Shown here: piece by piece, positions 12,487-40,848 of the stretch
Layout of the letters: each line of letters begins with the position of its first letter
How positions within the stretch are numbered: the first letter of the stretch is position 1
Origin: a virus
Lineage: Duplodnaviria > Heunggongvirae > Uroviricota > Caudoviricetes
Length of the DNA stretch: 56,868 bases
Direction: 5' to 3' (one strand)
IMG/VR virus record: IMGVR_UViG_648276647_000006
Span: 1 to 56,868 of that record
The notes under the pieces: generated by a model
Database searches by the model: none
What the model was told of the DNA's origin: nothing
Seen by the model: the letters and a program-made list of their open reading frames with translations, nothing else
Translations under genes and position numbers: made by a program

Positions 12487-12499
12487 TTATTAGAGCAAT
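12483..12499 (-). promoter_or_regulatory. C1 operator (inverted)
   Basis: Reverse complement ATTGCTCTAATAAAAAA. Confidence 0.6.
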
Positions 12500-12513
12500 C
12501 CATAAGGTGCACT

Positions 12514-12732
12514 ATGTGGCCATTCCGACGGAAATATCACTACTGGCTGATCGCCTTTGTTACGCCGACCGGCGGTATCAGGCATGTCATCACCAGGTAT
12601 CGCAACAAGAGACTCACCTTAGCCAGAATTTTACAGGCTGCCATAGGTGAGGGACTGGATACAAATTGCGTAGTCCTTCCACCTTCATACTTAGGAAAAA
12701 TGACCGAAGCACAAGCTAATACGGAACTTTGA
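12514..12732 (+). CDS. hypothetical small protein
   Basis: ORF track 72 aa; AAGGTG RBS; stop abuts the next start. Confidence 0.35.
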   Translation: MWPFRRKYHYWLIAFVTPTGGIRHVITRYRNKRLTLARILQAAIGEGLDTNCVVLPPSYLGKMTEAQANTEL

Positions 12733-28535: not shown

Positions 28536-28931
28536 ATGTTTAATGGCCTGACAGATGCCAAGGTAAACGCCTTACTGAACGACGCAAAACAAAAAGCTGC
28601 TAACCCTGGAACGAATGAAAATGAACGTGCTATGGCTGTTGCAATTTGGGAGTTAGCAGAAGAAGTAAAGCGAAACCGCTTACTATACACTCGGGTTTAC
28701 CAGCAATTTGATGGTGCGAGCTGGATAGATATCGAAGAGGCTGAATATGCAACATGCAAAAAAGAAAAAAAGATTGTTCGGATTTTGCATAAAGCAGCAA
28801 CCCCAATCACTGTAGAAATCCCCGATCACAGATATTTCGAGAACGATGATCTACCAGGGGATGTGATTCGAATTATTGATGAGATACTTCATGAACAAGG
28901 CTTAACTGTTAAAATTACGCATAATAAATGA
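28536..28931 (+). CDS. hypothetical protein, translationally coupled to cre
   Basis: ORF track 131 aa; GAGGTGA RBS; its stop overlaps the cre ATG. Confidence 0.6.
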   Translation: MFNGLTDAKVNALLNDAKQKAANPGTNENERAMAVAIWELAEEVKRNRLLYTRVYQQFDGASWIDIEEAEYATCKKEKKIVRILHKAATPITVEIPDHRYFENDDLPGDVIRIIDEILHEQGLTVKITHNK

Positions 28932-29959
28932 CTAATTCGTTAACCGTTCACCAAAATTTGCCTGCATTGCCGGTCGATGCAACGAGTGATGAGGTTCGCA
29001 AGAACCTGATGGACATGTTCAGGGATCGCCAGGCGTTTTCTGAGCATACCTGGAAAATGCTTCTGTCCGTTTGCCGGTCGTGGGCGGCATGGTGCAAGTT
29101 GAATAACCGGAAATGGTTTCCCGCAGAACCTGAAGATGTTCGCGATTACCTTCTATATCTTCAGGCGCGTGGTCTGGCAGTAAAAACTATCCAGCAACAT
29201 TTGGGCCAGCTAAACATGCTTCATCGTCGGTCCGGGCTGCCACGACCAAGTGACAGCAATGCTGTTTCACTGGTCATGCGACGGATCCGAAAAGAAAACG
29301 TTGATGCCGGTGAGCGTGCAAAACAGGCGCTGGCGTTCGAACGCACTGATTTCGACCAGGTTCGTTCACTCATGGAAAATAGCGATCGCTGCCAGGATAT
29401 ACGTAATCTGGCATTTCTGGGGATTGCTTATAACACCCTGTTACGTATAGCCGAAATTTCCAGGATCAGGGTTAAAGATATCTCACGTACTGACGGTGGG
29501 AGGATGTTAATCCATATTGGCAGAACGAAAACGCTGGTTAGCACCGCTGGTGTAGAGAAGGCACTTAGCCTGGGGGTAACTAAACTGGTTGAGCGATGGA
29601 TTTCTGTCTCTGGTGTAGCTGATGATCCGAATAACTACCTGTTTTGCCGCGTCAGAAAAAATGGTGTTGCCGCGCCATCATCCACCAGCCAGCTATCAAC
29701 TCGCGCCCTGGAAGGGATTTTTGAAGCAACTCACCGATTGATTTACGGGGCAAAAGATGACTCTGGTCAGCGATACCTGGCCTGGTCTGGACATAGTGCC
29801 CGTGTCGGTGCCGCGCGAGATATGGCCCGCGCCGGAGTTTCAATACCGGAGATCATGCAAGCTGGTGGCTGGACCAACGTAAATATTGTCATGAACTACA
29901 TTCGTAACCTGGATAGTGAAACGGGGGCAATGGTGCGCCTGCTGGAAGATGGCGGTTAG
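28928..29959 (+). CDS. cre: Cre tyrosine recombinase
   Basis: ORF track 343 aa; near-identical to P1 Cre as I recall it (LTVHQNLPALPVDATSDEVRKNLMDMFRDRQAF...), with catalytic R, H-x-x-R and Y regions present. Confidence 0.97.
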   Translation: MTNSLTVHQNLPALPVDATSDEVRKNLMDMFRDRQAFSEHTWKMLLSVCRSWAAWCKLNNRKWFPAEPEDVRDYLLYLQARGLAVKTIQQHLGQLNMLHRRSGLPRPSDSNAVSLVMRRIRKENVDAGERAKQALAFERTDFDQVRSLMENSDRCQDIRNLAFLGIAYNTLLRIAEISRIRVKDISRTDGGRMLIHIGRTKTLVSTAGVEKALSLGVTKLVERWISVSGVADDPNNYLFCRVRKNGVAAPSSTSQLSTRALEGIFEATHRLIYGAKDDSGQRYLAWSGHSARVGAARDMARAGVSIPEIMQAGGWTNVNIVMNYIRNLDSETGAMVRLLEDGG

Positions 29960-31128: not shown

Positions 31129-31317
31129 TAAATATATTATTTTTAATGATAAATGATTGACAACTGACAAGTTACTTCAGTCAGAATCATCACACGCCCG
31201 GTACGGATGGATCCCTTTTCAAATATTCCATGGACGGCACAGTCTGAGTACCGGGCGCTACCTTCAGTTGTATTGCTAAGCCGCCGCTGGTGGCTTTTCT
31301 TTTTTGTAGGGGGCGCT

Positions 31318-31959
31318 ATGGATAAGAAAATATGCGTTGTTTCGATGAGCGTCGGCAAACCGGCGTCAATGACTGCTGCATGGATCAATAACGAGCTGAT
31401 AATGGCTGAGCGGACCAGCTACCCTGAACGCCGCCGCGATATGGAACTCCAGCTGCTGCGCGAATTGCGAGAAAAAGAGGAAAAGGGTTTTATCGTGCTG
31501 GTGGAAGAGGAAAACAGCTTTATTACTGGACGAGTTGGCCAGCGTGTAAGGTTGCGCGATCCCTTCATGAACGGCAGGCCGGTACTAATTGAGGCAATGC
31601 AGATTTACAAGGAGCTGGAACGCCAGAAAGCGATCAAGTTACCGCGCAAAGAATCCGGCAAATACATCCTCCACCAAAGCATCTTCGATTCCGAACACGA
31701 CAAAAAAGGCGATGAATTTTTCAACATCAACTGGAGCGAAATAACGACAGAGCATGTTCTGACGTTACTATGTTGCTTTGCGACGGAATACAACAACGTT
31801 GCCAGCGCAGACTACATCAGGGCAATGGCTGGAGAAGTTGAGGCACGCCAGGAACCATCGTTACTAAGCCCTCTGATTAACATAATTCGCGGAACCCAAA
31901 CGCTGGCACAAAAACAGGTGCCTAAGGGAGTATTAACAGGAAAAGGAAATTATCTATAA
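31318..31959 (+). CDS. hypothetical protein (mat position in P1)
   Basis: Start taken at ATG 31318 (AGGGGG RBS) within track ORF 31207..31959. Confidence 0.55.
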   Translation: MDKKICVVSMSVGKPASMTAAWINNELIMAERTSYPERRRDMELQLLRELREKEEKGFIVLVEEENSFITGRVGQRVRLRDPFMNGRPVLIEAMQIYKELERQKAIKLPRKESGKYILHQSIFDSEHDKKGDEFFNINWSEITTEHVLTLLCCFATEYNNVASADYIRAMAGEVEARQEPSLLSPLINIIRGTQTLAQKQVPKGVLTGKGNYL

Positions 31960-32015
31960 ACGTCAATGCATTAGGGTATACTTCTCCGTAGAACTATAAG
32001 TAAATGGAGTAAGTA

Positions 32016-33320
32016 ATGAGCGAGTATATAGAAATTGCCTATGCAGCAGCTACACATAGGCTGTGCTTTCTTACAGGCACTGGATTTTCAAAGGCTGTTT
32101 CTGATGATAAAGCCCCAAGTTGGCAATCTTTATTGGAGCAACTGTGCGGTTTATTGAAGGATGGTGACTCACTCAAAGAGGAATTATTTCCTGATGGAAA
32201 AGCAAAAGACCTTAGCCTTGAAGAGGCAGCTCAGGTTATTGCACTAAAATTTATACTTTCGGGGAAGAATATTTACCAGGAGATTGAGAAAATCATAGCC
32301 TCAATCGAACTTGATCCATCAATTGAATATATTCAAGACTTTTTCAAAGAAAACACATTTAAAGTAATTACGACAAATTATGACAAGTTAGCAGAAAAAC
32401 TGGCTGGAGAGAATCGAACGTGTACAATCACCCCCGGTCTGCCAATTCCAAAATATAATTGTGAGGTTAAAGTCTACCATGTTCACGGCTCTATAGACTC
32501 CCCATCAGATATGGTTGTTACTAGCGAGGATTATTTCAGATTTATAAATGGTAACTCTTACTTTTCAAATAAACTAAGCACAGTTCTACATGAAAACACT
32601 ATTGTTATTCTTGGCTATTCTCTAAGTGACGCGAACCTCAAGGCGATTATAAATGAATATAAGGTATTTTCACGGGACAACGTAATGTCCTCCAATATTT
32701 TCCTTATTTCCCGAGGGAAACTATTGCAACCTATTAAAGATTACTATTTTTCCTGCTTTGGGATTAGGGTTATAGATAAAACAGAGGTGTCTGATTTCTT
32801 TAGAAAACTTAACAAGAAAATTCCAGAAGCAAAAAAAATAAAAGACAAATTGAGGCACTCAATCAAATCGGTAATAAAAAACGGAAGAGAGTATAAAATA
32901 GAGTTCTTGAAGTTAGAGGATTCTTTTTATCATATCATTTCCTCCATTTCATCATCTGGATATAGCTGGAATGATGAAAAGGTATTAAATGTTTTTTGTG
33001 ATATAATAGATAAAAAAATAGATCTTACTAAAGAGTCTGGCGCATGGGAGCAGTATGAACACCTGGCAAAATGGCTTATTTATTTCGGTAGTTTATTTGA
33101 AGTAAAAGGAACCAACTTTGAGAAAAAATACATACATGCGGTTGAACACTCAATGACTTATATGAATAAACCTTACGAAACAGGCTACTCATGGCGAGCA
33201 TATCTAGCCTGGAAAACAAAATGGCCTTCACTGACAGCATCTAACCGCTCTCTTATTAAGAGTAAGATGGAAGAAATCCCGCTACAACAGATTCACGATA
33301 TTATATCTAAGTTTATATAG
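32016..33320 (+). CDS. SIR2-like (SIR2_2 family) protein, candidate NAD-depleting defence effector
   Basis: ORF track 434 aa; GGAG RBS; motifs GTGFS (res 21-25), TTNYD (119-123), HVHGS (155-159), GYSLSD (200-205); C-terminal ~180 aa with no motif I recognise; gene is conspicuously AT-rich relative to its flanks. Confidence 0.8.
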   Translation: MSEYIEIAYAAATHRLCFLTGTGFSKAVSDDKAPSWQSLLEQLCGLLKDGDSLKEELFPDGKAKDLSLEEAAQVIALKFILSGKNIYQEIEKIIASIELDPSIEYIQDFFKENTFKVITTNYDKLAEKLAGENRTCTITPGLPIPKYNCEVKVYHVHGSIDSPSDMVVTSEDYFRFINGNSYFSNKLSTVLHENTIVILGYSLSDANLKAIINEYKVFSRDNVMSSNIFLISRGKLLQPIKDYYFSCFGIRVIDKTEVSDFFRKLNKKIPEAKKIKDKLRHSIKSVIKNGREYKIEFLKLEDSFYHIISSISSSGYSWNDEKVLNVFCDIIDKKIDLTKESGAWEQYEHLAKWLIYFGSLFEVKGTNFEKKYIHAVEHSMTYMNKPYETGYSWRAYLAWKTKWPSLTASNRSLIKSKMEEIPLQQIHDIISKFI

Positions 33321-33329
33321 TATATTTAT

Positions 33330-33356
33330 CTCCGGCCTAATCTCCCTAGGCCGGAG
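33330..33356. terminator. hairpin between convergent genes
   Basis: CTCCGGCCTA-ATCTCCC-TAGGCCGGAG, perfect 10-bp stem. Confidence 0.5.
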
Positions 33357-33361
33357 AGTTC

Positions 33362-33610
33362 TTAATCAGCATTCAGGAGCAATGCGTTATCTATGATGAT
33401 CTGCTCCCATTCCTCGAATGCCCGGTCACGGACGCCCTGGGGAACGCTGTTAGTTTTGAAATCGACGACCGTCCGCCATTTCCCGTCCGGACGGTACATG
33501 CGCAGAGCTTTACTCCCCCCTTCCCTGCGCACCTCTACGTTATGCTTATCAGCAAACTCTTGTAATGCTCGTAGCGTCCCATGCTTTACTGTGTAGTATC
33601 GCTTTTTCAA
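33362..33610 (-). CDS. hypothetical protein (lxc position in P1)
   Basis: ORF track 82 aa; last gene of the darB operon. Confidence 0.6.
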   Translation of the reverse strand: MKKRYYTVKHGTLRALQEFADKHNVEVRREGGSKALRMYRPDGKWRTVVDFKTNSVPQGVRDRAFEEWEQIIIDNALLLNAD

Positions 33611-34047
33611 GTTTTCTCTCCAGCCTGTGCTAAGGCTTCAACTTCCAAATCGTAAGACTCAAACTCATAGTCCTGGTCGTCAACCTCTTCAGACACTGGC
33701 AGTAAATGCCAGGCTGAGTATATCTGGCCATTATCGAAACGCTCCTGGCTGTAGAGCGTCGCGGCTATGAGTGTCAGCGCCGGGCGGTCATAACGGTAAA
33801 TTTTGCGAACGTCACGGTCAACGAGACGACCGAAATTACCATAACCGCGCTCCAGTAATAATTTTTTAATTTCCGGCCAGTATGGGCCATAGCTGCGGTA
33901 CAGGCGGGGATTTTTCAGTAATCGCCCGCGTAGCCCTGACAGGAAGAAATCAACGTATTCGTCTTCTGTCTTTCCTAACAACGCCGTACGCAGTACCGCC
34001 TCAAGATATGTTTTATTCGGTTTTATTGTATCAGATAGTGTGGCCAT
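33607..34047 (-). CDS. hypothetical protein (ulx position in P1)
   Basis: ORF track 146 aa; 4-nt overlap with the downstream gene. Confidence 0.6.
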   Translation of the reverse strand: MATLSDTIKPNKTYLEAVLRTALLGKTEDEYVDFFLSGLRGRLLKNPRLYRSYGPYWPEIKKLLLERGYGNFGRLVDRDVRKIYRYDRPALTLIAATLYSQERFDNGQIYSAWHLLPVSEEVDDQDYEFESYDLEVEALAQAGEKT

Positions 34048-34080: not shown

Positions 34081-37000
34081 TTATGCGTATTGTTGGATGA
34101 CGGCCATAACGTCCGCCACGTTGTGTTTTGTCTCGATAATCCACCAGTTACCCGGGAAATCGCTGTTCTTCGCCTTCGCTGGCAGCCAGCGAGCGCCGAA
34201 TTTCGCCTTGATTGCGTCTTTCGCACGGAAAAGAATGCCTTTCATGCCGGACGCCTCCTGAAGCCCAAATACCTCGCCAGCGGCGAATTTTGGTGCGTAC
34301 ATCATCTTCAGGTCTGCGGTGGATACGCGATAATTCAGACCAAGAGACTGAGCTATGCTGGTGGCATCACCCTGTATTGATGATAACTCTTCTTGTTTCT
34401 CGTTTCTGGCGGCAATTTCTTCCTCCGTGATGTTGCCAAGGGCCAGGTTTATCCGATCAGCGTCTGCCTGTTTCTCTTCATCGGTGCGCCCGGCAAGAAC
34501 CGTGTTAATTCTCTGCAATATCTCCACATGATTCTTGCGCATGCTGAGCAATTCCGGCGTAACCTCGTTAAGATCCACCAGCCCTAGGATGGCAAGGTCG
34601 GAAAACATTGATACCAGGTTGTAGGTCATGCGATAGCTGAGTTGACCATAGGCTGATGGCAACTTCACCGCATCCATTTGATAGGCATCCATAAATTTAG
34701 AGCCGTCGTTTACGACATCCGCAATTGCAGGTGTGATTTTCCCTGTGGTGGCGGCCTCCCTGATTGCTGTTACCCACGATTGAGTCAGCGCGGCGACTGC
34801 ATGATTCAGATTGGTTTTCCGTTCTGCTGCAATGCGCGCGCTTGCTGCGTCCATTGCCTGCTTGACCTCGTCTTTATTGCTGTAAATGCCAATGGTGCCA
34901 AACTGTGCTGTGGTGATCTCATAATCTGACGCCCGGAACTCATGGGTACCGAAAATGGCATTGGTGACCTCAAGTTCAGAATCCCCGTTACGGGTAGCCC
35001 CCTGGCTTGTTTTCTCCGGCATTCTGGCGATCGCATCCGCTATTTTCTCCTGAATTGCTTCAGGGGATAGCGTATCTCCGTATGACGCGATTACATCGCC
35101 ATAATTGGAGCCAAACAGTTCAGTCAGGAATACTTCTGCCAAACGGATCTGGCGGTTATTCCCTTCCGACATCATACCAAGCACCCATTTAGCAATTGAC
35201 GACTTCAGCGCGCCGTCACGGCGATCCGGATAAACCGCATGCTTCAGCGGGTCCGTATAGGTACCAACAAAATCAATGCTGTAGCCTGACTCTGTAGTCT
35301 GAACGCCGTATGAGTCAGTGATTTTGATCATGCCGCGCTGCTGGAAACGGTAGAAATCGTCACAGGAAATGATGTCGTTAATCCCGGCGATGGAGACGCC
35401 ACCACTGATTTTCTGCATAACAGCATCTTCATTGGGAGTTACATCAACCTGTTTATCCAGCGTCTTCACATCCCAGTTACCCGATTTTGTGCCTTTGAAG
35501 GTAAAGATAATCTCCACGTCTGCGCGCTGGCTGTCGAAGTCCAGAGACTTAATGCGGACGATATCACCGGCAAAATCATAGTATTGGCCTACACGCCATG
35601 AGCGATCGCCGATAACAAGGAACTCACTCGCATGGTTAACCAGGTCAGGATCAACATCCAGAATGCCTTTATTTATTGCATCCTCCACCAGCGGGCGCAG
35701 GCGTTTGATATCCGTCGCGGCCTTCTGGGTACGGTTCAATAATTTCTCATAGCGGGAGATGGCTTGAGAGATATTAGCCTTCTGTTGAATAGCATTTTTT
35801 AACGAAGCGCGATATCGAGCTAACAACATACGGTCAGCGTTATGGACACTCCCCCAACGAGCCTTCCAGTCTGCGTTATCAGCTGCTTTGGCCATTACCG
35901 CCTGTTTGAATTTAGCTACCTCGGCGGTGGTCTTTTCAAGTTCCGCTTTGTTTCGCTCTAATTCAGCGGTAAGTACCTCCACATCCTCGCCAGCTGCGTG
36001 CTGCGCCTTGATGTAGTTCTGAAGGTCGATAGTAGCCTGTTCTTTCTGGCGAGCGCGTTGCGCGGCTTTCGCCTTATCCATTTGAACCTGCATCATTGCC
36101 AGACGTTCGCCATCATCCTTAGCGGTATACATCTGCATTTCGATCATATCGTTGGCGTCTGCGTTCTCCATTTCTGACTTATCTGAACGGAGGATATCGG
36201 AGATCCAGCCTGCTTTACGCTTCAGCGTCTTCAGTCGGTATTCATCGAAAGAACCCTTGCCGCAGTAGTAATGAACGCGAACGCTTGCACGGTTGGAGCC
36301 AACTCGGGCACCGCGACCGTTACGCTGTGCGATACTGGCTGGTGTCCATGGCAACGTCAGGTGGTGGATATCCGTCGTTCCTCGATGCAGGTTGATACCC
36401 ACCTCTGCCTTTTTGTTGCAGATGATGATCGGGGTCCGGCCCTCCTGGAAGTCGGCAGCAATCTTTTCCAGACCGCCCAACGACATTTCATTTTGCTGCG
36501 CGATATAGGCGTCATACAGAGCCATTTGCTCGTTGTATTTCGCTAGCTGTGCATCTGTTGGTTCATCCGGTAACTCTTTCGGCGGTTTAACCGCTTTCAG
36601 TTTCTTACCGGTTTTACCTGCCTCGGCAACCGTCTGAGCATTCAGGATCCCCACCTTTGAAGGTTCAAGGTTAAGAGCATTGCAGATAATGCGCTTGAGC
36701 TTCTGGTGCTGCGTTTTTTCATCGGTGAAGATGATTTGCTTACCTTCCGGGAAAAACTCCTTCAGCGTGGCGATCAGCTTCGCGTATTTGGGCGTAACGG
36801 GGTGAGTTACGGTCTGTTCGTCAATGCCAAACCTGGCCAGGCGCTTATTCACTTCCTGCTCGAACGCTTCCGGAACCTGCAACTGAATAAACTCGCCCTT
36901 ATCTATCAGGGAGTATTGCGATTGCTGCGTGATTGCATCATCACTGTCGTCGTCTTCGCTGGTGGCTTGTTTAGGCAAACTGTCCGCCAGCTGCTGCACC

Positions 37001-40000
37001 GCATCGGCATACTCCGGCAGGAAACGATAGGTGATCCGGCGATAGTACAGGTCCATGTCAGTACATACGCGGTCCATATCCCTGATTATTGAGAAGATCG
37101 GACGGGCTTTCTCGTGCTCAATCACGCCGTCTTCATTGACCGAGGTCGTTACGCCATTGTTGGCTTTGGCCGCCGCTTCCGCCTGCTGACGCAATTCTTC
37201 ATACGCCGCCAGTTGTTCTTCAGTAAGTGGTGCATCCTGCTGGTGCTCGTCCAGCTCCGGGATCTCCACGGTATCCTTAACGTCTTCCGCCGTTTTAAGC
37301 GTTGTCCACCGATGGAATATACCGCGCAGCGCATCAAGGTTTTCAAAGCCCACCAGCGCCATTTTTTCTTCAACTTCACCGCTGATTTTCTGTACCGTTT
37401 CCAGCCTGGTCTTACCGAAGAATTTAACGAAGTCATCAGGACCGTAGATCCCCATCTTCTGCCAGTATTCCTTCGGCAGCACATGAGAAAGCATGTTGTA
37501 TGCATCGATCGGGGTGTTAACGACTGGCGTTGCAGTCAGGAGAACCGGTCCGCGCCCGCCATTCTTTTTCATCAGGTATGCGTTTTTGATTGCCATATCT
37601 CGCGCCGATTGCGCCACCGCGCTGGTGGGCAGATAGGCCAGCTGTGACGCTTCGCGACCATTTTTATAGCTATTGCGGTAGTTGTGGCCTTCGTCAACGA
37701 TCACGCTATCGAAACCCATATCCTCAAAGTACGGATACTTCTCTGATTTTTCGGTGCCGGTATCTGAATACTCCGACAAGATACGGCGACGCGCGGCCTC
37801 TTTGCGGTGGGAGTCGGAGTCCATTGCGCTGGCTACACGCCCGGCGGCAACAAAGTCCAAAAGCATATCTTGAGCATGCTCATCTACGGTTTCATCGCGT
37901 AGAGGAAGGCGGAAGTATTGTTCTTTGGTGAGCACTACAGCACGGTAATTTGAGTGCGGGATAGCGTTTATCCGCGCCGTGATAGTGGCTTCATCAGCCA
38001 GCTTAAGGGCATCGCGCATAACGGGAGTGCCATCTGCACCAACGACAGCTTTACCGTTCTCATCGAGCACCGGCACCTGGCGAATCTGATCGCCATCCAT
38101 CAGCACATCAAGACCGACAAACAGGTAGTTACTGAATGCCTCTTCACTCAGGAACTCTTTTGCCTCGTAATACCAGTTTTCCAGCACTGATTTAGGTACT
38201 ACATACAAAGTTCTGGTTGATCGGCCATTCTCATAGTTGAACGCCTCAAGCGCCAGCGCAGTCGTGGTTTTACCCAGCCCGGTACCGAAGCCCAGGATGC
38301 CGCGCCCATCTTCGGACAGTCGGCGCACCTCGCTATTCTGGTAATCAAATGGCTGTCGCTTACCGCTTAATCCCTTCAACCCAAGCGGATCGCCAGAGTG
38401 TTCATACGGGATATTGCTATTGAACACATCGTTGTATTTGGCAACCAGCTCATCGTAGCGATCGTGCGTCTTGATCCACTTATTGAACTGGTCCTCAAGC
38501 AGTGCCATCTGCTCGCGGTAGCCGTTCGCCGTCGCGCTATCTTTGCCACCGATACGCGCACCATTGAGATACTTTTCCAGCTGTGCCGGGAACCCGGTCG
38601 CGTTTTCACCTGATTTACGGTCCCACTCGTAGCGGATCTCGCCTGTTTCTTTATCCTTGCGCTGGACGACACCGTATCGGTGTCCGACGAACAGACCATC
38701 ACCACCGTGATAGGTGTCAGAAACCATTTCGTCGCCTTCCAGCTGCACTGACTGCACATAGCGCAGATCCGGATAGCCGTTTTCCTGCAAAAATTCCAGA
38801 ATGACGGAACGGTCGAACCAACGGCTATTGAGCTTAAACCGGATATTCTCTGCTGGCGTCTTGATGCGCTTCTCTTCGATCGCTGCCAGCTGATTAAGGA
38901 CGTTGTTCTTTACTGGACCGTCGGGGAGCGTGGCGAGGAATTCCTGTTTTGGAGCCACTATCTCGTTAATGTCGCCGCTGGTGGCGCGGGCGAACGGAAC
39001 AATCCCGCCATACGGTGAAACCGCAATACCAGGGGTGCTGGCCAATAAATTAAGCAACTCTTCATCACTGGCTGGCAGTTCGCCGGTAAACGCAAGGCGG
39101 AAATCATCGAGCTGGATTGGATCGCGGGTAAGATCGCTATAGAGATAACGCAGGGTGTCCTGATAGCTGGTGGAGTCATAACTGGCGCTGGAATCATGCG
39201 TAACCAGCTTTCCTGTCAGCTCGTCAGAAATAGTGCCATCCAGCTTAATCGCACCACGGAAAGCAAACCAGGCGCGCGCACCGCTCCCCGACAATTTCGC
39301 TATAGGACCGCGACCTGGATTACCAAAGCGGTCAATCTCTGCCTGCAAACGGGATACCAGAGAAAGGCGCTGCTGTTCGATTTGTTCAGCACTATGCCCG
39401 GCGGCCTTCATATCCTGATATTCAATTAACATCCGGCCAATCATCGCCCCGCGATACAAGCGTTCACGGTATTTTTCAGGCTGGCTGTTAATCCAGTCCA
39501 CCAGCTGCACCATATCGTCGCTGATTGATGTGGTGTACTTATCGCGGACATTTGCCATCTGGGTAAATGTCATACCGAGACGGCCTTCTGTTGTAGTCAG
39601 GTTACGCTGAAGAGCCTCCCAGCTATTCGCGCCATAACTGGCAGCATCAATCTTAAGCTCCTTCCCGGCATCAGCTTCAATCCAGCGACCACCAGCATAT
39701 TTTTGCCATACGCCATTAATCAGGCGCATTTCCCCTTCATCAACAACGTCTGCGGTCGGTGACGGTTCGGCCATATTGAGCAAAGACCAGTCGATACGAC
39801 TTTCGAAACGATGAATCAGCTTCGCTTTAAGAGCCTGGTTATCAATCTGCCCGTCGGCACGAACCTCAATACGCCCCTGGAAGCCCTTTTCCTGGGTGCC
39901 ATGAACAAACCGGCGGCCATCCTTTTCAAACCACTTGCCAGAAATAAACGTTGGCCAAAGCACATTTGCCGATTCAAGAGTGCCTTCATCCACCAGGGGG

Positions 40001-40848
40001 ATTTTCTCAGCCATTTCTGCCGGATGTTTGCGCATCAGCACCACATCAACGACCGTACTGGTCCCGTTTGCATCAAAAGTACCGGTAGGCAAGCGGTGGG
40101 CGCCAAGAAATTCAGCTTTACGGGATAGGCGCAGGCGCAACCGCTTCATGTTTGAACCTGAAACAATGGACGGCGGCACAATCACACACATGAATCCGCC
40201 TGGCTTTATCTTGTCCAGCATGCGGAGCATGAAGTAAGACCCCATGTCCGTTTCTTCTGCGTAAGGCTTATCGATGTTGCGTGTGTTATCACGCCCGCCG
40301 AACGGAACGTTACCCACAACATGGTCGAATGAATCGTTAGGCGTGCTTACAGCCAGCTGTTCGAACGGGGAAATCTGTACGCTGTCTTCCGGATGTAACA
40401 GCTGGTTTATACGACCGGAAACACTGCTGATCTCAGTCGCAGTCATCACTGTACCAACCGGTTTTGTCTCATTAAAAACACCGGTTCCCGCGGAAGGTTC
40501 CAGGGTGTTACCTACGTCCGCGCCGTAGAGCTTCATGATCTCCCAGACACCTTCAGCGATCGGCTTTGGTGTGTAATATTCGGAGACAGAACCACCAATG
40601 CCGCCCTCCCCGGTGTACCCGGCCAGGATCTGGCGCTGTTCATCTGTCAGTGTCGCGCCGTCCACCAGCGAATTAAGCAAATCTATCGCCTTCTGATTCG
40701 CCTCCCGGCGCAGTCGGTCATAGCTTTTGCCTTCCACCTTTTCCACGCCGTATCTAATCGGCGCTCGGTGAGATGTTATTGCCCTAATGTATTTCAATAT
40801 TTCGCTGACACTTGAACAGCGAAACACCCCCATAGATAGCTTGTTCAT
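34081..40848 (-). CDS. darB: DarB-like antirestriction protein (N6-adenine methyltransferase plus DExH helicase)
   Basis: ORF track 2255 aa, the length I recall for P1 DarB; MTase motifs LEPSAGTGVF and NVPFGG; helicase motifs LGFGTGLGKTTTAL and DEGHNYRN. Confidence 0.9.
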   Translation of the reverse strand: MNKLSMGVFRCSSVSEILKYIRAITSHRAPIRYGVEKVEGKSYDRLRREANQKAIDLLNSLVDGATLTDEQRQILAGYTGEGGIGGSVSEYYTPKPIAEGVWEIMKLYGADVGNTLEPSAGTGVFNETKPVGTVMTATEISSVSGRINQLLHPEDSVQISPFEQLAVSTPNDSFDHVVGNVPFGGRDNTRNIDKPYAEETDMGSYFMLRMLDKIKPGGFMCVIVPPSIVSGSNMKRLRLRLSRKAEFLGAHRLPTGTFDANGTSTVVDVVLMRKHPAEMAEKIPLVDEGTLESANVLWPTFISGKWFEKDGRRFVHGTQEKGFQGRIEVRADGQIDNQALKAKLIHRFESRIDWSLLNMAEPSPTADVVDEGEMRLINGVWQKYAGGRWIEADAGKELKIDAASYGANSWEALQRNLTTTEGRLGMTFTQMANVRDKYTTSISDDMVQLVDWINSQPEKYRERLYRGAMIGRMLIEYQDMKAAGHSAEQIEQQRLSLVSRLQAEIDRFGNPGRGPIAKLSGSGARAWFAFRGAIKLDGTISDELTGKLVTHDSSASYDSTSYQDTLRYLYSDLTRDPIQLDDFRLAFTGELPASDEELLNLLASTPGIAVSPYGGIVPFARATSGDINEIVAPKQEFLATLPDGPVKNNVLNQLAAIEEKRIKTPAENIRFKLNSRWFDRSVILEFLQENGYPDLRYVQSVQLEGDEMVSDTYHGGDGLFVGHRYGVVQRKDKETGEIRYEWDRKSGENATGFPAQLEKYLNGARIGGKDSATANGYREQMALLEDQFNKWIKTHDRYDELVAKYNDVFNSNIPYEHSGDPLGLKGLSGKRQPFDYQNSEVRRLSEDGRGILGFGTGLGKTTTALALEAFNYENGRSTRTLYVVPKSVLENWYYEAKEFLSEEAFSNYLFVGLDVLMDGDQIRQVPVLDENGKAVVGADGTPVMRDALKLADEATITARINAIPHSNYRAVVLTKEQYFRLPLRDETVDEHAQDMLLDFVAAGRVASAMDSDSHRKEAARRRILSEYSDTGTEKSEKYPYFEDMGFDSVIVDEGHNYRNSYKNGREASQLAYLPTSAVAQSARDMAIKNAYLMKKNGGRGPVLLTATPVVNTPIDAYNMLSHVLPKEYWQKMGIYGPDDFVKFFGKTRLETVQKISGEVEEKMALVGFENLDALRGIFHRWTTLKTAEDVKDTVEIPELDEHQQDAPLTEEQLAAYEELRQQAEAAAKANNGVTTSVNEDGVIEHEKARPIFSIIRDMDRVCTDMDLYYRRITYRFLPEYADAVQQLADSLPKQATSEDDDSDDAITQQSQYSLIDKGEFIQLQVPEAFEQEVNKRLARFGIDEQTVTHPVTPKYAKLIATLKEFFPEGKQIIFTDEKTQHQKLKRIICNALNLEPSKVGILNAQTVAEAGKTGKKLKAVKPPKELPDEPTDAQLAKYNEQMALYDAYIAQQNEMSLGGLEKIAADFQEGRTPIIICNKKAEVGINLHRGTTDIHHLTLPWTPASIAQRNGRGARVGSNRASVRVHYYCGKGSFDEYRLKTLKRKAGWISDILRSDKSEMENADANDMIEMQMYTAKDDGERLAMMQVQMDKAKAAQRARQKEQATIDLQNYIKAQHAAGEDVEVLTAELERNKAELEKTTAEVAKFKQAVMAKAADNADWKARWGSVHNADRMLLARYRASLKNAIQQKANISQAISRYEKLLNRTQKAATDIKRLRPLVEDAINKGILDVDPDLVNHASEFLVIGDRSWRVGQYYDFAGDIVRIKSLDFDSQRADVEIIFTFKGTKSGNWDVKTLDKQVDVTPNEDAVMQKISGGVSIAGINDIISCDDFYRFQQRGMIKITDSYGVQTTESGYSIDFVGTYTDPLKHAVYPDRRDGALKSSIAKWVLGMMSEGNNRQIRLAEVFLTELFGSNYGDVIASYGDTLSPEAIQEKIADAIARMPEKTSQGATRNGDSELEVTNAIFGTHEFRASDYEITTAQFGTIGIYSNKDEVKQAMDAASARIAAERKTNLNHAVAALTQSWVTAIREAATTGKITPAIADVVNDGSKFMDAYQMDAVKLPSAYGQLSYRMTYNLVSMFSDLAILGLVDLNEVTPELLSMRKNHVEILQRINTVLAGRTDEEKQADADRINLALGNITEEEIAARNEKQEELSSIQGDATSIAQSLGLNYRVSTADLKMMYAPKFAAGEVFGLQEASGMKGILFRAKDAIKAKFGARWLPAKAKNSDFPGNWWIIETKHNVADVMAVIQQYA

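Follow-up and report, generated by a model that had tools for sequence, protein, structure and literature searches.

Defence proteins of the SIR2 type that deplete nicotinamide adenine dinucleotide (NAD+) have been described in several arrangements. DSR2 is a single-chain SIR2 NAD+ glycohydrolase (NADase) with an alpha-solenoid sensor (PMC11850899). Kongming KomC works with KomA/KomB and a dITP signal, and ThsA, KomC, Avs5 and FAM118B serve as precedents for SIR2 NADases activated by assembly. The nearest functional precedent for the protein studied here is sole-Sir2, a term that our literature search found in one paper only (10.1101/2024.12.27.630466). In that preprint, a single Sir2-like protein of ~440 residues (aa) is encoded within type I-C cas operons, between cas3 and cas5c, ahead of a crlRNA unit and under crlRNA control; it has a C-terminal Sir2 domain and an N-terminal part that is not DSR2-like, and it converts NAD+ to ADP-ribose (ADPR) in vitro. 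A non-CRISPR 'close homolog' of sole-Sir2 protects Escherichia coli against phages T2 and T4. The subject of this analysis is a gene for a 434-aa SIR2 protein in IMG/VR virus record IMGVR_UViG_648276647_000006, a Caudoviricetes sequence with a P1 backbone, of which positions 1 to 56,868 (the window) were analysed. The likeness between sole-Sir2 and the window protein is one of description only.

We propose, with a probability of about 0.6, that this gene is a self-contained, single-protein defence that depletes NAD+ to abort infection and that is carried as exchangeable cargo of P1-like elements. The basis for this reading is the fold of the protein, its intact catalytic asparagine/histidine dyad, its stand-alone state, the residence of the family in mobile elements and defence hotspots, and purifying selection.

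The SIR2 protein and its private C-terminal domain

The gene spans 32016..33320 (+), stop codon included, starts with ATG and encodes a protein identical to the RefSeq class WP_000006034.1. A Shine-Dalgarno GGAG is read directly at 32006..32009 (+), 6 nt before the start codon. The SIR2 (Rossmann-type) catalytic domain comprises residues 1-255 (32016..32780, +) and contains, in order, the motifs TGTGFS (20-25), ITTNYD (118-123), YHVHGS (154-159) and ILGYSLSD (198-205), which supply the catalytic-domain residues G21-x-G23-x-S25, T119-T120-N121-Y122-D123, H155-x-H157-G158-S159 and G200-Y201-S202-x-x-D205. N121 and H157 align with the TTNYD and HG motifs of ThsA and DSR2 and are invariant in both of our family alignments, one of 32 sequences and one of 45 that reaches down to 25% identity. 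The Pfam profile SIR2_2 (PF13289) matches residues 117-245 with 83.8 bits against a cut-off of 24.5 (E=1.6e-23), and 10 divergent relatives score 67-98 bits with the same profile. The 434-aa sequence contains no CxxC zinc ribbon.

An AlphaFold2 model built with 32 homologs (mean predicted local distance difference test score, pLDDT, 83.7; predicted template modelling score, pTM, 0.75) places residues 1-255 in an alpha/beta Rossmann-type domain and folds residues 258-434 into nine helices. Structure comparison of this model gives the highest values for KomC (22.9, 22.3) and SeThsA (21.6), followed by Avs5 (17.3, 14.8), PsSIR2 (16.7) and human FAM118B (16.5); the values are 12.3-12.4 for the HerA-associated SIR2, 10-12.6 for classical deacetylase sirtuins and 10.2 for SirTM. 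As modelled, the catalytic domain is a Rossmann-type SIR2 fold nearer to the NADase-type than to the deacetylase sirtuins. Foldseek matches DSR2, ThsA and KomC via the SIR2 core alone, with DSR2 as the top PDB match (E=1e-11), and a fold search of BFVD gave nothing at E<=1e-3.

The C-terminal domain (residues 256-434; 32781..33317, +) is all-alpha and private to the family. In the model it is not a SLOG, a Macro or any known nucleotide-binding fold, yet its conservation equals that of the catalytic core: W344, Q346, Y347, W353, S379, M380, M383, G390, S392, W393, Y396, W399, W403, N410 and R411 are invariant across the 32 sequences. An exhaustive phmmer search with residues 255-434 only, against 1.84 billion cluster representatives, retrieved 75 proteins, in which the domain always sits at ~255-430 of a 430-480-aa protein or occurs in a fragment. 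SIR2_2 was present in all 10 of the divergent full-length matches tested. We therefore regard the C-terminal domain as private to a SIR2-plus-helical architecture and not as a module shuffled among effectors.

Both domains are under purifying selection. The ratio of nonsynonymous to synonymous substitution rates (dN/dS) among P1-borne alleles is 0.12-0.21 overall. Comparisons of alleles that are ~92% identical give 0.11-0.17 for the SIR2 part and 0.13-0.20 for the C-terminal part. The closest pair, the window gene (32016-33317) and its counterpart in plasmid pE2865-1 (locus-extract coordinates 1201-2502; 97.5% identical), differs by 3 nonsynonymous and 14 synonymous changes over residues 1-255 and by 12 and 4, respectively, over residues 256-434 (Fisher p = 0.0016), with 14/14 replacements at residue 220 or beyond. 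This cluster of C-terminal replacements, drawn from one pair and small counts, is compatible with a faster-evolving recognition surface; it could reflect diversifying selection or, alternatively, stem from recombination in that domain.

An earlier note on this DNA, made from its letters and open reading frames (ORFs), had anticipated much of this description. The 434-aa ORF with its GGAG ribosome-binding site, the four SIR2 motifs in their order and the numbering of N121 and H157 are all borne out; the profile search that the note proposed as a check scores SIR2_2 above its cut-off, and the C-terminal part, which the note had called helical and not SLOG-like, is modelled as nine helices.

The mat-lxc slot and the spread of the family

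The gene lies in a cargo cassette of ~1.4 kb (31960..33361, +) that extends from the mat stop codon to the lxc stop codon, as delimited by junction alignments and GC content. On its left, the P1 backbone carries cre (28928-29959), c8, ref and mat on the + strand; mat (maturation control; 31207..31959, +) is an ORF 96-98% identical to mat of P1-like phages and is named after the P1 annotation. On its right stands lxc (modulator of C1; 33362..33610, -), an ORF identified by homology and annotation in P1, P7 and RCS47, followed by ulx (33607-34047, -) and, beyond it, darB (34081-40848, -). The SIR2 gene is the sole ORF of note from the end of mat at 31959 to lxc at 33362, so the gene is solitary in this interval, as the earlier note had it. 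The note's remark that the gene is more AT-rich than its P1 flanks is likewise accurate: GC is 0.32-0.37 in the gene against 0.45-0.53 in the flanks, and the gene is the lowest-GC kilobase (0.353) in the whole 56.9-kb window. Between the convergent SIR2 and lxc genes, a terminator-like hairpin with an 11-bp perfect stem and a 7-nt loop occupies 33329..33357 (+). It folds at -20.8 kcal/mol (z = -4.88; RNA fold and terminator scan), and 0/200 shuffled sequences were as stable; the hairpin given earlier as 10 bp at 33330-33356 is thus real, with a stem one pair longer. The cassette has no Rfam match on either strand. The best sigma-70-like match of the region (GTGAAA-16-TATAAT, 10/12) runs antisense at 32646-32673 (-), inside the SIR2 gene, and is probably a chance product of AT-rich sequence, although antisense transcription could start from it.

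Homology to P1, RCS47, SJ46 and JL22 stops right after the mat stop codon and returns at the lxc stop codon (TTAATCAGCATTCAGG). Canonical P1 (NC_005856) has mat at 2716-3468, res at 3544-6456 (-), an IS5-interrupted mod, and lxc at 9750-9998; the SIR2 gene is not in it by DNA and tblastn searches. The interval is empty in RCS47. Salmonella phage SJ46 holds there a 373-aa RelA/SpoT family gene (locus-extract coordinates 2372-3493), which is probably a CapRel-type fused toxin-antitoxin defence; a Tn1721 transposase gene lies upstream of mat in the same phage. In phage JL22, the minus strand encodes a hypothetical protein of 316 aa (locus-extract coordinates 2302-3252), and vB_EcoM-Ro157c2YLVW has two hypothetical genes (locus-extract coordinates 1725-3299); these may be further candidate defence genes. 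The junction alignments show that each cargo of the slot brought its own hairpin. In pE2865-1 (NZ_AP018809.1), the order is mat, SIR2 (the 97.5% allele), res, mod, lxc (locus-extract coordinates 2193-8934), and the SIR2 hairpin is followed by a ~95-bp remnant of the lxc 3' end and then by the res terminator region (compare window 33318-33420). This remnant indicates that a SIR2 cassette with the window-type SIR2|lxc junction recombined into an element that already held res/mod; SIR2 and type III restriction-modification (RM) are therefore not mutually exclusive cargo. In the same plasmid, darB has shrunk to a 144-nt pseudogene fragment.

Inserts in this slot run from the stop codon of mat to that of lxc and vary in content among P1-like elements, which marks the mat-lxc interval as a cargo hotspot and not the site of a one-off swap. 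The EcoP1I res/mod genes and the other slot cargo share the slot and boundaries of the SIR2 gene, and this cargo serves defence in P1 (type III RM) and probably in SJ46; the proteins and mechanism of EcoP1I are, by contrast, unrelated to the SIR2 gene. The earlier note had placed res and mod in this part of the P1 map, rightly according to the NC_005856 annotation, and had concluded that a defence cargo appears to have been swapped. The slot is indeed the one used by res/mod and the SIR2 gene is absent from P1, but the hotspot, and the presence of SIR2 together with res/mod in pE2865-1, do not fit a simple exchange.

The gene is common in E. coli plasmids. At >= 90% identity it is present in 66 PLSDB plasmids of ~92-120 kb, nearly all from E. 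coli, where it is annotated as 'SIR2 family protein'. Among 5,426 complete E. coli genomes, 70 carry it, and 71 of its 72 places are on plasmids. A P1-type lxc flank occurs in 699 of these genomes and is directly adjoined by SIR2 in 66, so that about one in ten P1-like elements carries the gene. The exact protein is encoded on at least 1000 public contigs. The RefSeq name of WP_000006034.1 is 'SIR2 family NAD-dependent protein deacylase', and PHROG 7567 ('unknown function') is a full-length match with 965 bits. In INPHARED phage records, the gene is absent by DNA and tblastn, with remote matches to the SIR2 core only. A profile-guided scan of GTDB representative genomes found 56 full-length members, from Gamma-, Beta- and Alphaproteobacteria, Desulfobacter, Actinobacteria, a Treponema metagenome-assembled genome (MAG) and a Caenarcaniphilales MAG; a profile search with the 45-sequence alignment returned close members only, and no new taxa, among the matches listed. 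The earlier description of the gene as a candidate undescribed defence gene agrees with the lack of a named family in PADLOC and NCBIfam, but the thousand or more contigs, the 'SIR2 family' annotation, PHROG 7567 and the sole-Sir2 preprint make that claim doubtful.

Across the family, no neighbouring gene recurs in a way that suggests a partner. When ORFs were called and clustered in 61 loci, every neighbour family within 10 kb was limited to 6 loci or fewer, and the few that did recur lay at scattered distances. In a PADLOC census of 222 nearest neighbours, no family accounted for more than 3; the neighbours included GajB, dGTPase, type I R and S subunits, PD-T7-5, DRT, type IV restriction, NERD+UvrD and PDC-S05/S02/S66. 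A conserved small upstream gene was considered and dropped: the neighbours of 167-301 aa in Pseudoalteromonas, Halomonas, Comamonas and Pseudomonas show no relationship that extends over more than 3 loci, and PADLOC identifies none of them except for PDC-S66 in Vreelandella. The annotation of a 99.7%-identical plasmid shows no TIR, HerA, pAgo or STAND gene in the 20 kb on either side, and the same plasmid type has ordinary P1 backbone over 20 kb each side. The solitary state claimed earlier for the window gene is supported by this annotation and by the lack of a recurrent partner in the 61 loci. In NZ_CP033848.1, a near-identical P1-like plasmid, an InsQ/TnpB RNA-guided endonuclease gene is inserted adjacent to ddrA (locus-extract coordinates 38213-39421).

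The homologs themselves occupy varied mobile-element and defence contexts. On E. coli chromosomes, a homolog directly follows a lambdoid prophage integrase gene; in Klebsiella oxytoca, one lies within a P4-like satellite; in Vibrio cholerae, one is near a GmrSD-type gene; and in Halomonas, one resides in a defence island. The Pseudomonas putida homolog is beside a Gabija-like pair. Four kilobases downstream of it, a DUF4917 protein (SIR2-related) adjoins the same pair (locus-extract coordinates 11556-12566), which gives two SIR2-type genes in one island. A 32%-identical member in the Treponema sp. MAG stands between hsdS and hsdR, all in one orientation and separated by 23 and 68 bp (locus-extract coordinates 5819-11616), and its embedding in the RM operon resembles that of PrrC-type genes. 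A divergent 455-aa member (P0136), encoded on a metagenome contig, is beside a prophage cI/cro/antirepressor module. Another product of that prophage is a metallo-beta-lactamase-fold protein that weakly matches the Anti-Pycsar Apyc1 Pfam family (locus-extract coordinates 8753-9433), so the element may combine a defence gene with a possible anti-defence gene. TIR-like genes account for 2/222 nearest neighbours, in 2 of the 61 loci. In Vreelandella nanhaiensis, the SIR2 member is followed on its own strand, after 146 bp, by a TIR-like gene that is a full-length PDC-S66 (364 bits; ThsB-like E=6e-52; locus-extract coordinates 11406-12308), and the second such neighbour in the census has the same matches. 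PDC-S66 is itself a catalogued single-gene candidate, and the Vreelandella arrangement may be either co-location in a defence island or an occasional SIR2+TIR pairing.

Proposed function and competing explanations

We infer the defence role and NAD+ depletion from homology and context, and the mechanism set out here, from its enzymatic activity and trigger to its abortive outcome, is a proposal of the analysis. Residues 1-255 would hydrolyse NAD+ in the manner of the SIR2-type glycohydrolases in Thoeris ThsA, DSR2, Kongming KomC and Avs5. The last ~180 residues, a putative helical-repeat module with a sensor/regulatory or oligomerisation role, would hold the enzyme off in healthy lysogens, where the gene is presumed to be expressed. 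Infection by a competing phage would switch the enzyme on, either when the C-terminal domain binds a phage product or when it drives self-assembly, as in related SIR2 NADases. The activated enzyme would hydrolyse NAD+, so that the infected cell would be arrested, replication of the invader aborted, and sibling cells carrying the plasmid-prophage protected.

Several points weigh against this proposal. Support for the defence reading of the family comes from sequence and model. The C-terminal domain is without a specific structural homolog in the structure comparison and in BFVD, which makes the sensor role a guess. CRISPR-linked sole-Sir2 genes gave no protection against the phage panel in the preprint (10.1101/2024.12.27.630466), and pFR88, a SIR2_2 protein cloned by Rousset et al., is not among the validated systems named in the available portion of that text, with its PADLOC class, PDC-S25, being unvalidated. 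The TIR-like neighbour in 2/61 loci leaves some room for signal-dependent activation. Finally, a strict scan, which is insensitive to weak or AT-rich promoters, found no sigma-70 promoter in the 56 bp that separate mat from the SIR2 ATG, and a terminator scan found no terminator there; since mat is C1-repressed and late, read-through expression limited to lytic growth is possible.

This last point is the starting place for an explanation in which the SIR2 gene serves the lytic programme of the phage itself: co-transcribed with mat and made only after induction or infection, its product might keep out co-infecting phages, alter host metabolism or work as a counter-defence. The gene is on the strand of mat, for which the P1 annotation gives a C1 operator and a late promoter. 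We nevertheless rate this explanation lowest of all those considered, given that relatives occupy moron positions expressed in lysogens (after int, beside cI) and phage-free chromosomal defence islands, that the other cargo of the slot, which occurs in both orientations, brings its own signals, and that the promoter scan is of limited sensitivity. Hardly more probable is a protein-modifying sirtuin, either an NAD-dependent deacylase, as the RefSeq name implies, or an ADP-ribosyltransferase, that would modify one particular target of host or phage instead of depleting NAD+ in bulk; the modelled fold, as described above, is nearer to the NADases than to the deacetylases.

The two remaining explanations keep the NADase and alter its setting. 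The protein could be the effector half of a split system, activated by a small-molecule signal or a partner protein whose gene lies on the host chromosome or at another place in the plasmid; ThsB plays this part for ThsA, and KomA/B for KomC. Its closest structural relatives, KomC and ThsA, are both signal-activated effectors, and a PDC-S66 gene is adjacent in two loci; but no partner recurs, the C-terminal domain lacks a known nucleotide-binding fold, the cassette moves as a single gene among P1 elements, prophages and a satellite, and PDC-S66 is catalogued as a single-gene candidate. Together, these observations make a split system improbable. More credible, albeit still unlikely, is that the window protein belongs to the reported sole-Sir2 family, which would make it the same NADase defence, a known system in a new location. 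Both are stand-alone proteins of similar length (~440 aa against 434 aa, with relatives of 430-480 aa and no conserved partner), and sole-Sir2 hydrolyses NAD+ and has a non-CRISPR close homolog active against T2/T4. Their domain order is opposite, however, with Sir2 at the C-terminus of sole-Sir2 and SIR2 at the N-terminus of the window protein, and the GTDB scan found no Neisseria member. Neither the window nor any of the ~68 family loci has cas neighbours, but the active homolog of sole-Sir2 is likewise not CRISPR-linked, which is compatible with membership.

Within the NAD+-depleting, single-protein defence that we favour, a stronger version can be put forward tentatively: the protein might be the smallest self-sufficient SIR2 immune receptor, whose private 180-residue helical domain would directly recognise a phage trigger and license the NADase. 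If so, the 1.4-kb one-gene cassette would be portable immunity against rival phages for P1-like phage-plasmids, lambdoid prophages and P4-like satellites, and the C-terminal replacements between near-identical alleles would mark a recognition surface in an arms race. Confirmation of the defence function as such would add a compact single-gene NAD+-depletion system, with 1.3 kb of coding sequence, that is common in clinical and veterinary E. coli. It would also offer a tractable minimal model for the way in which a SIR2 NADase is kept inactive and then activated, give more evidence for the mat-lxc interval of P1 as a defence-cargo hotspot, and bear on host-range prediction in phage therapy, on the use of P1-like elements and on P1 transduction in wild strains. 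As SIR2 NADases are already well established as abortive-infection effectors, the advance would be incremental, and with similar small Sir2 defence proteins already reported, it is unlikely to surprise a specialist greatly.

Comparison with known SIR2 defence systems

We scanned Pfam, NCBIfam, PADLOC and PDB sequences, in which matches to named families are confined to the SIR2 core and no family-specific name for the protein exists. No PADLOC or NCBIfam family includes it at full length; the earlier note had suggested a check of this kind. Our literature search found nothing on WP_000006034, nor on P1-like elements together with SIR2. A survey that applied DefenseFinder to 846 P1-like contigs reports type III RM, dGTPase, PrrC and CapRel, and mentions no SIR2 system in its text or supplement; without a profile name of its own and without a mention in that survey, the family has probably gone uncounted in defence surveys.

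Membership in the systems with a dedicated partner or sensor was considered and rejected in each case. For SIR2-HerA (Nezha) and PD-T7-2, there is no adjacent HerA-type ATPase partner; the 'Sir2 homologue' of Vassallo et al., PD-T7-2A, belongs to a different system, in which this DUF4917/SIR2 protein is paired with an ATPase. Avs5/SIR2-STAND proteins exceed 750 aa and combine a central STAND NTPase with a C-terminal repeat sensor; the 434-aa window protein has no NTPase domain in Pfam, NCBIfam or PADLOC. The PADLOC match to Lamassu LmuA (48 bits) covers residues 20-219 only, and no SMC-like LmuB gene is adjacent. Thoeris type I ThsA binds its gcADPR signal through a C-terminal SLOG domain and is accompanied by an adjacent gene for the TIR-domain protein ThsB, and the window system has neither: the C-terminal half of the protein is all-alpha, no ThsB/TIR gene lies between mat and lxc or within 20 kb in the 99.7%-identical plasmid, and the PADLOC ThsA profile is matched only at positions 107-215 of 478. 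Kongming KomC (PDB 8zsf/9v0g) consists of SIR2 only, in 264-278 aa, whereas the window protein has an extra 180-aa domain; KomA/KomB genes are found neither in the window nor in the 20-kb plasmid flanks, and do not recur in the 61 loci.

The single-gene proteins offer closer parallels. PDC-S25, represented by pFR88 of the P4 hotspot (Rousset et al.), is also a single-gene SIR2_2 protein in an E. coli mobile-element defence hotspot, and it is the best PADLOC match of the window protein (83 bits), although only over profile positions 127-283 of 517. pFR88 is a true member, scoring 285 bits over positions 10-342 of the profile; the window protein, with its partial coverage, 25% identity to pFR88 over 240 aa of SIR2 core and no C-terminal similarity to it, is not. 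DSR1 and DSR2 are families of ~1000-1250 aa built from SIR2, MID and CTD, and membership in them was rejected with scores of 30.6 bits (NCBIfam Dsr2) and 21.2 bits (Dsr1) against cut-offs of 1400; the likeness lies in the SIR2 core alone, and the sequence comparison detected none to the helical domains of DSR2. On balance, and with some uncertainty, the window protein appears to be a SIR2-type defence architecture in a variant new to the catalogues queried, set apart from sole-Sir2 by description only. In DSR2 of Bacillus subtilis (PDB 8k98/8wy8), a SIR2 NADase at the N-terminus likewise precedes an all-helical (alpha-solenoid) region in one chain, again without a partner gene, but DSR2 is ~1005 aa long and binds the phage tail tube through its MID and CTD domains, whereas the window protein, much shorter than the DSR-type sirtuins as the earlier note had observed, joins its SIR2 domain to a helical domain within 434 aa.

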